In this document: positions 2,849 to 55,122 of the stretch, one piece after another
Numbering within the stretch: the stretch's first letter is position 1
Layout: every line of letters starts with the position of its first letter
Source: Armatimonadota bacterium
Lineage (GTDB): Bacteria; Armatimonadota; UBA5829
DNA: 64,000 nt
Reading direction: 5' to 3'
NCBI GenBank assembly: GCA_012522575.1
Contig: JAAYKE010000071.1
Coordinates: 2,058-66,057 of the forward strand
Notes under the pieces: generated by a model
What the model was told of the DNA's origin: nothing
The model's input: only the letters and a program-made list of their open reading frames with translations
Database searches by the model: none
Translations under genes and position numbers: made by a program

Positions 2849-2876
2849 AACCTCTAACCTCTAACTTCCAACCTCC
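2849..2876. repeat. Heptamer short tandem repeat, (AACCTCT)n-like
   Basis: AACCTCT-AACCTCT-AACTTCC-AACCTCC; the same unit occurs in reverse at 61016-61048. Confidence 0.7.
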
Positions 2877-2881
2877 ATTTT

Positions 2882-2995
2882 TGTCATTTCGAGCATCGCG
2901 AGAAATCTGCTTTTTCCCTTCCCTATTCCGGGTTTCGCTTCTTTCGGGCTTTCGCGATTTACAGAAAATTAGAGTTCTCACTACGTTCGAAATGA
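2882..2995. repeat. Inverted pair of TGTC/CGTC-type REP-like palindromes
   Basis: TGTCATTTCGAGCATCGCGAGAAATCTGCTTTT (2882-2914) and a partial inverted copy TTCTCACTACGTTCGAAATGA (~2975-2995). Confidence 0.8.
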
Positions 2996-3041
2996 TATAA
3001 TTTGTGTGGCCAGGCATTCAAATCCGGCCATCGCAATTTAT

Positions 3042-19135: not shown

Positions 19136-19207
19136 GCCGCGTTTCGAGCCAAACCTGCGCCGCAGCTTGCGCGGGAATTTGATTTGTGCGCAATGACACA
19201 ATATAGC

Positions 19208-19236
19208 TTGACTGTCGTAACGTCCGGTGTTACCAT
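19208..19236 (+). promoter_or_regulatory. Probable sigma70 promoter of the hdr-flx operon
   Basis: TTGACT-N17-TACCAT with TGn. Confidence 0.45.
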
Positions 19237-19291
19237 AAGATTGTGTGATACGTGAGAATGAAGTGTTCGGCAAGTTGTCGGGCAGTAATAC

Positions 19292-19876
19292 ATGGAGAGC
19301 ACGTTGAATCCTGATCCCAAAGAAACTACCTCCTCAATAAGCTCTATGAGCGCGTCGGTTGACTCCAACTTCAAACAAGAAATCCAGGCTATATGCGGTG
19401 AAAATGTGTTGAGCTGCTATCAATGCGGCGAATGCACCGCGGGCTGTCCGGTGGCTTTCAGTATGGATATCGCGCCTAACCAGGTCATTCGTATGGCGCA
19501 GTCCGGTTTGAAGGACGAAGTTTTGACAAGCTCCTCGATATGGTTGTGCGCCGGCTGTGAGACCTGCGCCACCCGTTGCCCTCGTGGAGTTGCTTTATCC
19601 AAAATTATGGATGCGTGCAGGCAGATTTCAGTTGCCCAGGACAAAGTCACTCCGGAGCAGAAAAATGTGCTCAAAATGCACGAGGAAATGCTGCGGCAGA
19701 TTAAAACATTTGGCCGGGTTCACGAGATCAGCATGATCGCAGCGTTCAAGATGCGCACCGGCAGGTTCTTCGACGATGTAATCTCCGGCATAAATATGTT
19801 TTTCAAGGGCAAACTGGGCCTGATTCCGGGGATTATCAAGGGCCGCAAGGAAGTTAAAGGGCTGTTTAGGAAGTAG
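19292..19876 (+). CDS. hdrC: Heterodisulfide reductase subunit C (2x[4Fe-4S])
   Basis: CYQCGECTAGCP and CAGCETCATRCP ferredoxin motifs, plus GRVHE. Confidence 0.92.
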   Translation: MESTLNPDPKETTSSISSMSASVDSNFKQEIQAICGENVLSCYQCGECTAGCPVAFSMDIAPNQVIRMAQSGLKDEVLTSSSIWLCAGCETCATRCPRGVALSKIMDACRQISVAQDKVTPEQKNVLKMHEEMLRQIKTFGRVHEISMIAAFKMRTGRFFDDVISGINMFFKGKLGLIPGIIKGRKEVKGLFRK

Positions 19877-19905
19877 GGCTTGTTATCGTCATTTGGGGTT
19901 TATAG

Positions 19906-20229
19906 GTGGCAACAAAAAAGCAGTTCTATGTGTATCTGTTGGCTAACAAATCCAGAACGCTTTATGTAGGCGTCACGAGCAATTTGACGAAACGTCTTTA
20001 CGAACACAAAAACAAGTTAATGCCCGGTTTTACCAGCAAATACTGTATAAATAGGCTAGTGTATTTTGAGGTGTGTGATTGGGCAGCAACTGCCATAGCT
20101 CGCGAAAAACAGATTAAGTCTTGGTCACGAGCAAAAAAGGTAGCTTTGATTGAGGAAAATAATCGTGTTTGGGCAGACCTCAGTGAGTATTGGTCGGAAA
20201 AAGCAGATTTCTCATTTCATTCGAAATGA
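19906..20229 (+). CDS. Small stand-alone GIY-YIG nuclease
   Basis: FYVYLLAN..TLYVGVTSNLTKRLYEHK..GFTSKY..RLVYFE..AIAREKQIKSWSRAKKVALIE. Confidence 0.92.
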   Translation: MATKKQFYVYLLANKSRTLYVGVTSNLTKRLYEHKNKLMPGFTSKYCINRLVYFEVCDWAATAIAREKQIKSWSRAKKVALIEENNRVWADLSEYWSEKADFSFHSK

Positions 20230-20323
20230 CGTTTTTGTTTGCTTTGAGGTCTATTAGGAGCTTGCTTATTGTCGATACGCGCTCACTTTTTGTCATTTCG
20301 AGCGTAGCGAGAAATCTGCTTTT
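20199..20323. repeat. Divergent pair of CGTC/TGTC REP-like palindromes next to the GIY-YIG gene
   Basis: The reverse complement of 20199-20231 is CGTCATTTCGAATGAAATGAGAAATCTGCTTTT; 20291-20323 is TGTCATTTCGAGCGTAGCGAGAAATCTGCTTTT. Confidence 0.88.
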
Positions 20324-20377
20324 GCGGCGTACAGCATTTTATATTGCTATTGACAACATATTACTAAGGACTGGCAA

Positions 20378-21265
20378 ATGAACTACGCATATTTCCCGGG
20401 CTGCAGCCTGGAGTCTACGGCTAAGGAGTTTCATCACTCCACTACTTTGGTAGCGAGTGCGCTGGGCATCGAGCTGCAGGAGATTCCGGACTGGAACTGC
20501 TGCGGGGCGACATCCGCGCATAATCTCGACCACGACCTGAGCATCTCCCTGCCGGCGCGTAATCTTGGGATCGCGGAGAGGATGAAGATGGATGTGGTGG
20601 CTCCGTGTGCGGCGTGTTACAATCGCATGCGTTCTGCCGAGGTCGAGCTTAAATCCAACGCGACTCTGCGCGATGATATCAACTCTAAACTGGAGAAAAA
20701 ATTCACCGGCCAGGTGACGGTGCTCTCCGCGCTGGAGGTGTTCACGCAGCCGGATGTGCTCCAAAAAGTGTCCGAAAACATACGCAAGCCGCTCAGCGGG
20801 CTAAAACCTGCGTGTTATTATGGTTGCCTGCTGGTTCGTCCGCCAAAAGTGATGGGATTTGACGACGCCGAGGAACCGATGAGCATGGATAAGGCTATGC
20901 AGACGGTTGGAGCGGAGCCGGTCGACTGGTTTTTTAAGAACGAATGCTGCGGGGCCAGCTTCGGCATATCCAAAAGCAGCATAGTTGCGGAATTGACCGG
21001 TAAGATCATATCCAACGCGAAGCAGCACGGCGCGAACTGCATAGTGACTGCCTGTCCGCTTTGTATGACCAACCTCGAAATGAGGCAGGCGGCGGCGGGC
21101 AAATTGCGCGGAGAAAATTTGACTATGCCGATTTTCTTCTTCACCGAACTGCTCGGTTTGGCGATGGAGGCTCCGGGCATAAAGAAGTGCTTTGCATCTC
21201 ATCTGGTCGATGTGAACCCGGCGCTGGATCTAATAGGCAGGGAGCCTGTCGAAGTAGAGAGCTGA
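20378..21265 (+). CDS. hdrB: Heterodisulfide reductase subunit B (CCG domains)
   Basis: YFPGCSL, DWNCCG, PCAACY, YYGCLL, ECCGAS, TACPLC. Confidence 0.93.
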   Translation: MNYAYFPGCSLESTAKEFHHSTTLVASALGIELQEIPDWNCCGATSAHNLDHDLSISLPARNLGIAERMKMDVVAPCAACYNRMRSAEVELKSNATLRDDINSKLEKKFTGQVTVLSALEVFTQPDVLQKVSENIRKPLSGLKPACYYGCLLVRPPKVMGFDDAEEPMSMDKAMQTVGAEPVDWFFKNECCGASFGISKSSIVAELTGKIISNAKQHGANCIVTACPLCMTNLEMRQAAAGKLRGENLTMPIFFFTELLGLAMEAPGIKKCFASHLVDVNPALDLIGREPVEVES

Positions 21266-21266
21266 G

Positions 21267-21488
21267 ATGCTGAATGGGATAAAACCTGAGAAAGCTATTC
21301 GAGCTTTTGAGAAAGCAGGGGGCGTAGTGAGGAAACGAGGTTCAGGAAGTCACGTAGTGATTAAAATGCCCAACGGGCAACTGATCTCGATTCCCGATCA
21401 CGGCGAAATAAAGTCGGGGTTGCTTCAGGCAGCGATTAGAAAAGCCGGTCTGACAACGGATGAATTTCTGAGTTTTCTCAGGAGCTAG
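21267..21488 (+). CDS. hicA: HicA-family toxin (mRNA interferase)
   Basis: 73 aa; AIRAFEKAG..RGSGSHV..ISIPDHGEIKSGLLQAAIRKAGL. Confidence 0.85.
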   Translation: MLNGIKPEKAIRAFEKAGGVVRKRGSGSHVVIKMPNGQLISIPDHGEIKSGLLQAAIRKAGLTTDEFLSFLRS

Positions 21489-21490
21489 CA

Positions 21491-21709
21491 ATGAACTACA
21501 CTATTTTGGTACATCCTGCTGAAGAAGGTGGCTACTGGACGGAGGTTCCCGGTTTGCCAGGCTGCTATTCGCAAGGGGAAACCGTTGAGCAAGCAATAGA
21601 ATATACGCGAGACGCAATAGAACTGATGCTGGAATGCCTGCGAGAAGATGGCGTGGAAGCAAAAGGGGACGATGGGCTGCTTATCGTAAGCGTTAATGTA
21701 GTGGCTTGA
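21491..21709 (+). CDS. hicB: Short HicB-family antitoxin
   Basis: YTILVHPAEEGGYWTEVPGLPGCYSQGETVEQAIEYTRDAI. Confidence 0.88.
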   Translation: MNYTILVHPAEEGGYWTEVPGLPGCYSQGETVEQAIEYTRDAIELMLECLREDGVEAKGDDGLLIVSVNVVA

Positions 21710-21769
21710 GAGCCTGAGTTTGACAGACAATACTGATAACTCCGGCGACAGTGTGTTGGAGGTACGGCC

Positions 21770-21985
21770 GTGAAATACACAGTGGTACTTGAACGTGAAG
21801 AAGATGGCGGTTACCATGCTTTTGCCCCGGCCTTGCAGGGGTGCCATAGCCAAGGGGATACTCTGGATGAGGTGAAAGCAAATATTCGAGAGGCGATTGA
21901 GCTATATTTGGAGAGCTTGAAAGCTGCCGGCGAGCCTTATCCTGATGATAACGTTCAAATATTGCCGGTTGAGGTAGCTGCGTGA
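21770..21985 (+). CDS. hicB: Short HicB-family antitoxin
   Basis: YTVVLEREEDGGYHAFAPALQGCHSQGDTLDEVKANIREAIELYL. Confidence 0.88.
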   Translation: MKYTVVLEREEDGGYHAFAPALQGCHSQGDTLDEVKANIREAIELYLESLKAAGEPYPDDNVQILPVEVAA

Positions 21986-22215
21986 GTCCGCGAATTCCGC
22001 GCGTGACCAGTGCTCAAGTCGAAACTGTCGCAAGAAGAGCAGGATTTCGACTCGATCGAACAAAAGGGGGACACGTCATCTATTTCCGCGATGCGGATAA
22101 GCGTCGTGTTGTAATCCCGGTACATAAAGGAAAAACCTTGAAACCGAAAACATTTGCAGGAATTGTTCGGGACATGGGCATTACGGTTGATGAGTTTAGA
22201 TCGCTGCTTAAGTAG
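21982..22215 (+). CDS. hicA: HicA-family toxin
   Basis: ARRAGFRLDRTKGGHVIY..RVVIPVHKGKTLKPKTFAGIVRDMG; 4-nt overlap with hicB. Confidence 0.87.
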   Translation: MSPRIPRVTSAQVETVARRAGFRLDRTKGGHVIYFRDADKRRVVIPVHKGKTLKPKTFAGIVRDMGITVDEFRSLLK

Positions 22216-46998: not shown

Positions 46999-47017
46999 TC
47001 ATTCCAACCTATAAAGC

Positions 47018-47367
47018 GTAGTGGCCGTGCCTCTGCCCCGGCCATAACAACAAACTATGTCATTTCGAACGAAGTGAGAAATCTGCTTTTTTCGATGTCC
47101 GAGGTCAGATGTTCGAAGTCCGATCAAGCCTTCTTAGGATACCCCTATTACGATACCATATAGTTATTTCCGGCTTTCGCTTCTTTCGCGTTTTCGCGTT
47201 TTCCTAAAAAATACAAGAAATCTGCTTTTTTCGATGTCCGATATCCGAGGTTCGAAGTCCGATCAAGCCTTCTTAGGCTACCTCTATTACGATACCATAT
47301 AGTTATTTCCGGCTTTCGCTTCTTTCGCGCTTTCGCGTTTCCCCAAAAATACAAGAAATCTGCTTTT
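47018..47367. repeat. Composite GTAG-REP + TGTC-REP followed by two ~138-bp tandem units
   Basis: GTAGTGGCCGTGCCTCTGCCCCGGCCA (47018-47044), TGTCATTTCG..AGAAATCTGCTTTT (47058-47090). AGAAATCTGCTTTT recurs at 47077, 47216 and 47354 with near-identical sequence in between. Confidence 0.88.
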
Positions 47368-54850: not shown

Positions 54851-55091
54851 GGTTTGGGAGTTGGAATATGGAAGCTGGAGGTCAGGACGGAAAAGCAGAT
54901 TTCTCGTTTCACTCGAAATGACGGGAAAGTTTATATCCAACGACCAGCTTCCAATTGATATCTTCTCCACAGTGTCGCTTCTAACCTTCGGTTTGGGAGT
55001 TGGAATATGGAAGTTGGGAAGGAAAAGCAGATTTCTCGCTGCGCTCGAAATGACATAATTTGTGTGGCCGGGACAGAGGCACGGCCACTAC
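54851..55091. repeat. Duplicated purine-rich block + TGTC-REP units ending in a GTAG-REP (inverted relative to the 47-kb element)
   Basis: GGTTTGGGAGTTGGAATATGGAAG at 54851 and 54990; REP copies at 54891-54922 and 55023-55055; the reverse complement of 55065-55091 is GTAGTGGCCGTGCCTCTGTCCCGGCCA. Confidence 0.85.
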
Positions 55092-55122
55092 ATTTCACCA
55101 AGGCATTTCCATCCTCATCCCT

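Follow-up and report, generated by a model that had tools for sequence, protein, structure and literature searches.

This locus raises the question of what a small GIY-YIG nuclease gene, lying between the hdrC-like and hdrB-like genes of an Armatimonadota bacterium, has to do with a hairpin repeat that stands beside it and is dispersed over the 64,000-nucleotide stretch of DNA analysed here (the window). Sequence comparison indicated that the gene probably encodes an enzyme of the Ssn family, that is, a predicted site-specific endonuclease of single-stranded DNA (ssDNA), and that the dispersed hairpins are probably its cognate recognition repeats (Ssn-related motifs, SRM). The preliminary description of this DNA had regarded the mechanism as essentially uncharacterised, a view that is outdated since Ssn/SRM biochemistry has been published (Chenal et al. 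2025, Nat Commun 16:2388; PMC11893778). Judged by its sequence, the system is of a kind already characterised, and the hairpin of this member is a G·A-mismatch variant.

The gene is located as follows:

19906..20229, plus strand: ssn, encoding a 107-amino-acid (aa) single-domain GIY-YIG nuclease assigned to the Ssn family (GTG start; Pfam PF01541)

It starts 29 nucleotides (nt) past the hdrC stop and ends 148 nt short of hdrB. The protein matched PF01541 (GIY-YIG) over residues 7-78 (E 1.2e-15) and no second domain was found in the Pfam scan. Its last nine codons (KADFSFHSK) and the TGA stop were encoded by a hairpin copy on the opposite strand (20199-20231), the stop being the complement of the hairpin tag (TGAC / GTCA); this confirmed the earlier claim of a 107-aa GIY-YIG gene between hdrC and hdrB with repeat-encoded last codons. 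More than 6,800 homologs were present in a large protein collection, and residues Y10, Y20, G22, R30, H34, and E67 were invariant across 45 homologs. The C-termini of homologs often read ...KADSSLRSE or ...DPSLRSG (each followed by the stop) or ...IPRCTRND, the hairpin being translated in the same register with compensatory stem changes. NCBIfam and PADLOC profiles gave sub-threshold matches only, among them TIGR01453 with 18.9 bits (cut-off 56). A GIY-YIG homing endonuclease of the I-TevI or Seg type was ruled out by the single domain, the chromosomal intergenic setting and the TIGR01453 score below cut-off.

The repeat unit has the form YGTC-ATTTC-GA-NN-GNA-NN-GA-GAAAT-CTGCTTTT, in which a tandem G·A/A·G mismatch separates the 5-bp stem from two upper pairs and the 3-nt loop; on the G·A strand, the hairpin of the ssn system reads TGTCATTTCGAGCGTAGCGAGAAATCTGC. 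The two upper pairs varied between copies in a compensatory manner (GC/GC, AT/AT, AC/GT, GT/AC). Six zero-mismatch matches to YGTCATTTCGA-N8-AGAAATCTGCTTTT were obtained in the 64-kb window and none in 100 dinucleotide shuffles, and a looser scan added a degenerate copy and two 3' half-copies, giving seven copies in 64 kb vs. about 0-2 in shuffles. The perfect-palindrome pattern GTCATTTCGA...TCGAAATGAC gave 0 matches in the window; the stem is not a perfect palindrome. All six exact copies had the YGTC tag and the C following the stem (the degenerate seventh has ATC), and the solo copies were intergenic without exception. The copies and related sequences are listed below, those next to the gene first:

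20199..20231, minus strand: hairpin (G·A-type SRM) encoding the last codons and TGA of ssn on the opposite strand; exact pattern
20291..20323, plus strand: second hairpin, inverted with respect to the first, 59 nt downstream; exact pattern
19887..19894, plus strand: CGTCATTT, a possible remnant of an upstream sense hairpin, read from the sequence
2882..2914, plus strand: solo hairpin, intergenic, between convergent genes; exact pattern
2970..2996, minus strand: degenerate hairpin in convergent orientation to the 2882 copy, with ATC as tag and a single mismatch in the stem; looser scan
47058..47090, plus strand: solo hairpin adjoining a GTAG-type repetitive extragenic palindrome (REP); exact pattern
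47215-47229 and 47353-47367: 3' half-copies of the hairpin; looser scan
54891..54923, minus strand: solo hairpin, intergenic; exact pattern
55023..55055, minus strand: solo hairpin, direct repeat of the 54891 copy, adjoining a GTAG-type REP; exact pattern

The preliminary description had placed an inverted copy about 60 bp downstream and further copies at 2882, about 2975, 47058, 54891, and 55023; all were recovered, the one near 2975 being the degenerate copy. It had also proposed a remnant just upstream of the gene. The short sequence is present there and may derive from a sense hairpin; two relatives whose ssn occupies this spacer as well, L200 and L201, have a complete hairpin (TGTCATTTCGAGCGCAGCGAGAAATCTGCTTTT) upstream of the gene. 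The copy at 20199-20231 can adopt an alternative perfect 7-bp fold, TCATTTC-GAAT-GAAATGA (-5 kcal/mol as DNA), which the other copies cannot. The solo-hairpin clusters at 2850-3040, 47017-47250, and 54851-55095 were mosaics with other repeat modules, similar in look to bacterial interspersed mosaic elements (BIME): a GTAG-tagged GGCCG...CGGCC palindrome, heptamer arrays of the GGTTGGA/GGTTAGA type and a CCGGNTTTCGCTTCTTTCG module.

The type member of the Ssn family is SsnA of Neisseria meningitidis (NMV_0044; CDD cd10448), a 94-aa single-domain GIY-YIG protein shown biochemically to be a hairpin-guided, ssDNA-specific endonuclease (PMC11893778). SsnA binds the NTS hairpin (CGTCATTCCCGCGMAVGCGGGAATCYRG) as ssDNA only, does not bind RNA, and cuts a few nt upstream; cutting needs Y6, Y17, and E64, the C just past the palindrome is the most important position for binding and the three nt before the palindrome are the most important for cutting (PMC11893778). 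Motifs occur near 71% of Ssn homolog genes and on both sides of 42%, and 81% of the genomes with >200 motifs encode an Ssn homolog (PMC11893778). The NTS-ssnA-NTS layout was likened to insertion sequence (IS) elements and to REPs with their REP-associated tyrosine transposases (RAYT), mobility and domestication being raised as hypotheses only, and in Neisseria SsnA lowers transformation by NTS-flanked DNA (PMC11893778).

A candidate SsnA ortholog was obtained by tblastn against a plasmid collection, which matched N. gonorrhoeae NZ_CP119140.1 and NZ_CP119142.1 (2.17-Mb records filed as plasmids, evidently whole chromosomes). The open reading frame (ORF) found there encodes 94 aa, including Y6, Y17, and E64, and its 3.3-kb locus contains 16 matches to the NTS core (GTCATTCCC...GGGAAT) around the gene. 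The window protein shared 50% identity with it over 88 aa (90 bits, E 4e-30), and Y10, Y20, and E67 of the window protein aligned with Y6, Y17, and E64, respectively. Solved UPF0213 proteins were a much weaker match (33 bits for 1zg2). These UPF0213/YhbQ or bacterial Slx1-like proteins (PDB 1zg2, 1ywl) resemble the window protein in having a minimal GIY-YIG domain without extras, and are distant from it in profile comparison (E 3e-7 and 4e-4); we know of no hairpin repeats associated with them. A search of the literature on GIY-YIG proteins with REPs or miniature inverted-repeat transposable elements (MITE), on COG2827 and on YhbQ found nothing relevant, and a 2006 survey of GIY-YIG proteins leaves repeats unmentioned.

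The window member resembles the Ssn/NTS-SRM system in several respects. Its protein, a lone GIY-YIG domain of roughly 100 aa, shares 50% identity and the Y/Y/E active site with the Neisseria enzyme, its gene is flanked by multi-copy intergenic hairpins, and the hairpins follow a common design, in which a (Y)GTC tag precedes a 9-position stem that begins with AT and closes on a 3-nt loop, with a C directly past the stem. The window member differs in the conserved tandem G·A at stem positions 6-7 and the GNA loop, in its host (an uncultured Armatimonadota bacterium from anaerobic digesters), in the stop codon placed inside the hairpin tag and in the setting of the cassette within an hdrCBA operon. 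The published enzyme assays are those of the Neisseria member; a search for RNA runs bearing on the window member found none.

The association between nuclease and hairpin was then assessed in 80 metagenome loci encoding homologs of 47-66% identity. A G·A-type hairpin was found within 250 nt of the gene in 67 of the 80 loci, and a hairpin of the canonical SRM type in 1 of 80. Sense hairpins lay within 200 nt upstream of the homolog gene in 50 of the 69 loci with enough flank, and antisense hairpins at its 3' end in 44 of 76, in contrast with a background of 0.27 hairpins per kb at more than 600 nt from the gene (0.12 per kb in shuffles). The tie between the repeat and GIY-YIG homologs, for which the preliminary description had asked a check, was therefore borne out. 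The commonest layout was hairpin(+)-gene-hairpin(-), in 23 of 62 loci. Among the G·A hairpins near homologs, GTC stood directly 5' of the stem in 94 of 101 and C directly 3' in 96 of 101, neither of which was demanded by the search; in SsnA, cutting and binding depend most on these positions (PMC11893778).

Hairpin types also differed among the named relatives. G·A-type hairpins were found in Planktothrix, the closest of them (61% identity), whereas the more distant Azospirillum, Shinella, Aeromonas, and Neisseria (48-50% identity) had canonical perfect-stem motifs; Spirosoma presented a short-topped G·A form, and S. meliloti and Novosphingobium other variants. In a 108-sequence protein tree, the distinction between canonical and G·A type required 2 changes (shuffled mean 5.9; 0 of 300 shuffles as low) and stem type required 26 changes (33.3 in shuffles; 0 of 300 as low). 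Hairpin class and stem type thus cluster on the nuclease tree, although resolution of the tree is poor and clustering would also be expected from shared ancestry by itself.

It is highly improbable that the hairpins are ordinary REPs of a RAYT (Y1/HUH) encoded elsewhere in the genome, with the GIY-YIG gene merely lying among them. GTAG-tagged REP-like palindromes adjoin two of the copies (47018-47057 and 55056-55091), and the genome therefore probably also has a classical REP family. However, the link with the GIY-YIG gene holds across phyla in a fixed register, with the stop codon inside the tag, the hairpin type follows the nuclease clade, and the published Ssn enzyme binds and cuts such hairpins directly (PMC11893778). 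The system had been described earlier as REPtron-like. This holds for its layout, as an inverted pair of genome-dispersed hairpins bracketing a small nuclease gene resembles a REPtron (RAYT, IS200/IS605-like Y1) and is conserved, and the expected recognition of ssDNA hairpins and the BIME-like mosaic clusters of repeats are further points of likeness. It does not hold for the enzyme, which is a hydrolytic GIY-YIG nuclease and not a Y1/HUH transposase, a RAYT forming a covalent DNA intermediate. To our knowledge, no rejoining chemistry exists for the enzyme. The CGTC/TGTC-tagged REP superfamily, said to have been defined by Di Nocera et al. in 2013 for the repeats only, reportedly combines a 5' tag with a palindrome and has a wide taxonomic spread; the hairpins share this tag-palindrome design, and both the present analysis and the Ssn paper add a partner enzyme.

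Several observations weigh against the assignment of gene and hairpins to the Ssn family. The published SRM pattern, HGTCWYN(0-2)YYVSBRHN(0-5)WNVSBRGN(0-2)RNCYNB, matched 0 of the 7 window hairpins, as compared to 9 matches in the control N. gonorrhoeae locus; the pattern misses the window hairpins because of the tandem G·A in the stem. The N. gonorrhoeae ORF is considered the probable SsnA ortholog on the basis of its length, its residues and its NTS flanks rather than of an alignment with the N. meningitidis protein. In hairpin loci of other genomes, a GIY-YIG gene was found within 8 kb in only 4 of the 117 loci listed, and none at the hairpin itself. Most copies are therefore solo, as is the case of REPs with respect to their RAYT, and adjacency of solo copies is consequently no useful test. 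Finally, nearest-neighbour DNA folding of the window copies was no better than that of shuffles, with z values of +0.15 to +0.74 for five copies and -1.66 for the gene-overlapping copy. Folding energy was set aside as a test, since the model treats a tandem G·A as an internal loop that destabilises the fold, and covariation was used instead.

For this purpose, matches to GTCATTTCGA-N7-GAGAAATCTG were collected with the loop region left free and one genome per species (at least 117 loci and at least 139 instances). Both top pairs were Watson-Crick in 110 of the 139 matches listed, vs. a partner-shuffled mean of 37 and maximum of 52; among the same matches, the outer top pair was CG in 54, GC in 40, and AT in 30, and about three quarters had a GNA loop. 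Near the homologs, the lower stem covaried as well (ATTTC/GAAAT, ATTCT/AGAAT, ATCCT/AGGAT, ATCCC/GGGAT, and others). The hairpin is thus supported by covariation, not by folding energy. The exact 27-nt hairpin appeared under more than 15 phylum-level labels among the record titles of the matches listed, including Bacteroidota, Armatimonadota, Acidobacteriota, Nitrospirota, Pseudomonadota, Ignavibacteriota, Planctomycetota, Chloroflexota, Spirochaetota, and a Bathyarchaeota bin. The Bathyarchaeota bin is L019, a metagenome-assembled genome (MAG) of Candidatus Bathyarchaeota, and this bacterial hairpin was also found in Patescibacteria and Omnitrophota bins; these occurrences may reflect very wide horizontal spread or binning contamination. 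Single MAG cases may be contaminated.

The same features bear on a role in RNA, according to which the hairpin would act as a terminator or as an mRNA-stabilising stem-loop, which would account for its location where genes end, ssn (3' end) among them. All copies of this lineage have the CTGCTTTT tail after the stem, and solo copies are placed where convergent or tandem genes have their 3' ends, as would be expected. We consider this very unlikely, however, given that a terminator scan of 19200-20450 found nothing, that the ssn mRNA strand would carry pyrimidine-pyrimidine (U·C) mismatches and not G·A, and that Neisseria SsnA does not bind RNA (PMC11893778). Furthermore, near-identity over many phyla together with the strictly kept unpaired GTC and C point to protein recognition. 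No Rfam match was obtained either, a permissive scan of 19800-20450 giving only chance-level matches to eukaryotic families. A hammerhead or a k-turn, considered for the GA motifs, was rejected on sequence, the CUGANGA core and the 3-nt bulge being absent.

Carried over from the characterised Neisseria enzyme, the mechanism of the window member would be as follows. Single strands carrying the hairpin would arise in replication, transformation, conjugation or repair. The strand YGTC-ATTTC-GA-NN-GNA-NN-GA-GAAAT-C would fold when single-stranded, with a 5-bp stem, the tandem G·A pair, 2 bp and the GNA loop, and the enzyme of about 100 aa would bind the folded hairpin, its key contact being the C just past the stem. 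Cutting would occur on the 5' side of the GTC tag, at a distance of a few nt; duplex DNA, RNA and the complementary strand should not be substrates. For the two gene-adjacent copies, the predicted cuts would be on opposite strands, both within the 59 nt that separate the copies (20232-20290). In the cell, hairpin-bearing ssDNA may be restricted or processed and hairpin clusters may become recombination-prone, which would fit the strain-level replacement at the hdrC-hdrB spacer described below.

The genes bordering this spacer are:

19292..19876, plus strand: hdrC-like gene (194 aa), whose stop is the left edge of the variable spacer; Pfam Fer4_8, Fer4_9, Fer4_17
20378..21265, plus strand: hdrB-like gene; Pfam CCG, two matches

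Two hicAB pairs and then hdrA follow downstream of hdrB. In a sister strain, represented by contigs L213-L216 from public digester and wastewater runs and 98% identical in hdrC and hdrB, window positions 19877-20377 (501 nt) were replaced by 93 unrelated bases. Identity ran through the hdrC TAG stop and resumed about 15 nt before the hdrB ATG (blastn), and the 93-nt spacer contained no hairpin, target duplication or footprint; two short stretches of it (18 nt, E 0.011; 21 nt, E 2e-4) weakly resembled the terminal parts of the L204 hicAB cassette. The strain polymorphism looks like whole-spacer replacement by flanking homology, not transposition. The locus does not fit an insertion sequence or MITE, whose target-site duplication and precise empty site are absent from the sister strain. 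The comparison of hdrC-hdrB junctions in relatives that had been proposed earlier to find the empty site thus revealed a presence/absence polymorphism of the cassette, but no duplication or footprint. In the sister strain (run X5, L213), the first hicA (window 21267-21491) was also replaced, by 232 other bases with a 55-aa ORF, between flanks of 98-99.6% identity.

The spacer content of more distant relatives was as follows:

L204 and L205, HdrB identity to the window 92%: hicAB
L206, HdrB identity 84%: a 129-aa ORF
L200 and L201, HdrB identity 82%: ssn and a 128-aa ORF
L208, HdrB identity 82%: hicB as a called gene, with a hicA-like stretch (no gene called) before it
L207, HdrB identity 81%: empty, 68 nt
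L203, no HdrB identity value (hdrB truncated by the contig end): a DUF4838 gene in the place of hdrC, then ssn, then hdrB

The cassette had been said to split a normally contiguous hdrCB pair. The bare spacer of L207 agrees with this, but in the other relatives the spacer is a variable slot occupied by hicAB, an ORF or ssn. In this Armatimonadota clade, both spacers of hdrC-hdrB-hdrA (window 19877-20377 and 21267-22215) were slots for small accessory genes, which across L200, L204-L208, and L213 comprised ssn, hicAB pairs, a 129-aa membrane-like ORF, a methyltransferase, NUDIX and DUF4160/DUF2442; the bare 68-nt hdrC-hdrB spacer occurred only in L207 among the loci compared. Outside this operon, a 75%-identical ssn of L198 stood between a Memo and a PMT_2 gene, embedded in tandem arrays whose 109-nt units are hairpin pairs. 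In L198 3886-4560, each 109-nt unit consisted of an ATTTC-stem hairpin(+) and an ATTCC-stem hairpin(-), and the hairpin(-) unit of about 52 nt was directly repeated on either side of the gene body. Hairpin-flanked Ssn homologs were also observed on plasmid AZO_p3 of Azospirillum lipoferum 4B (L219), where the gene interrupts sufB-[ssn]-sufC, and on plasmid p1 of Planktothrix agardhii (L217), between an MmeI-type restriction-modification gene and DISARM drmA.

These arrangements bear on the possibility that hairpin-ssn-hairpin is an autonomous selfish mobile element and that solo hairpins or pairs are its gene-less derivatives. The nuclease would nick beside a hairpin, and the gene or the hairpin would then be copied or pasted into that site by an IS200/IS605-like single-strand route or by homing-like repair; this is compatible with the assignment to Ssn and adds a claim of mobility. 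The inverted pair bracketing the gene, being the commonest layout (23 of 62 loci), is in line with it, as are the genes of L198 and L203, which lie between direct repeats of one hairpin unit in 109-nt arrays and have their 5' boundary about 16-38 nt from the upstream hairpin, on the side of the predicted cut. Close homologs (73-80% identity) occurred in differing contexts (hdrC-hdrB, Memo/PMT_2, DUF4838/hdrB), the cassette was absent from the 98%-identical sister strain, other operons were likewise interrupted (e.g., sufB-ssn-sufC in Azospirillum), and the exact 27-nt hairpin was found under >15 phylum-level labels. In contrast, the sole strain-level polymorphism was that of the whole spacer (501 vs. 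93 nt); identity broke off at the stop of hdrC and in the hdrB leader, and no target duplication or hairpin footprint was seen. Moreover, ssn was present in the same spacer of 82%-identical relatives with a divergence near that of HdrB (79% vs. 82%), which fits long vertical residence, and the family was scarce in viral contigs (about 17 good matches in 2.9 million contigs). GIY-YIG enzymes hydrolyse DNA and we know of no strand-joining step for them, which also counts against such an element. Taken together, we regard autonomous mobility as possible but rather unlikely.

With the gene as a probable Ssn-family enzyme and the hairpins as its likely recognition repeats, we tentatively propose that the G·A hairpin (GTC-N5-GA-stem/GNA loop-GA-N5'-C) might represent a distinct and very widespread subclass of Ssn motifs with its own large nuclease clade, and that the cassettes of this clade might be replaceable units in operon spacers such as hdrC-hdrB and sufB-sufC, the enzyme carrying its stop codon within its own recognition tag. 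If this is true, counts of Ssn hairpins would be large underestimates, since the published SRM pattern misses the G·A hairpins. For work on Ssn, a hairpin class unseen by the published motif search dominates the 80 loci of closest relatives, and surveys of Ssn-repeat abundance could usefully be redone with a structure-aware model. Regarding genome biology, the locus presents clear strain-level turnover of a cassette inside a conserved redox operon. New pairs of enzyme and sequence are offered for ssDNA tools, and what would be annotated as a GIY-YIG family protein plus unexplained repeats becomes a named, putative enzyme-substrate pair of testable specificity. If the enzyme also drives the spread of the repeats, the system would amount to a counterpart of RAYT/REP that works with a hydrolytic nuclease.

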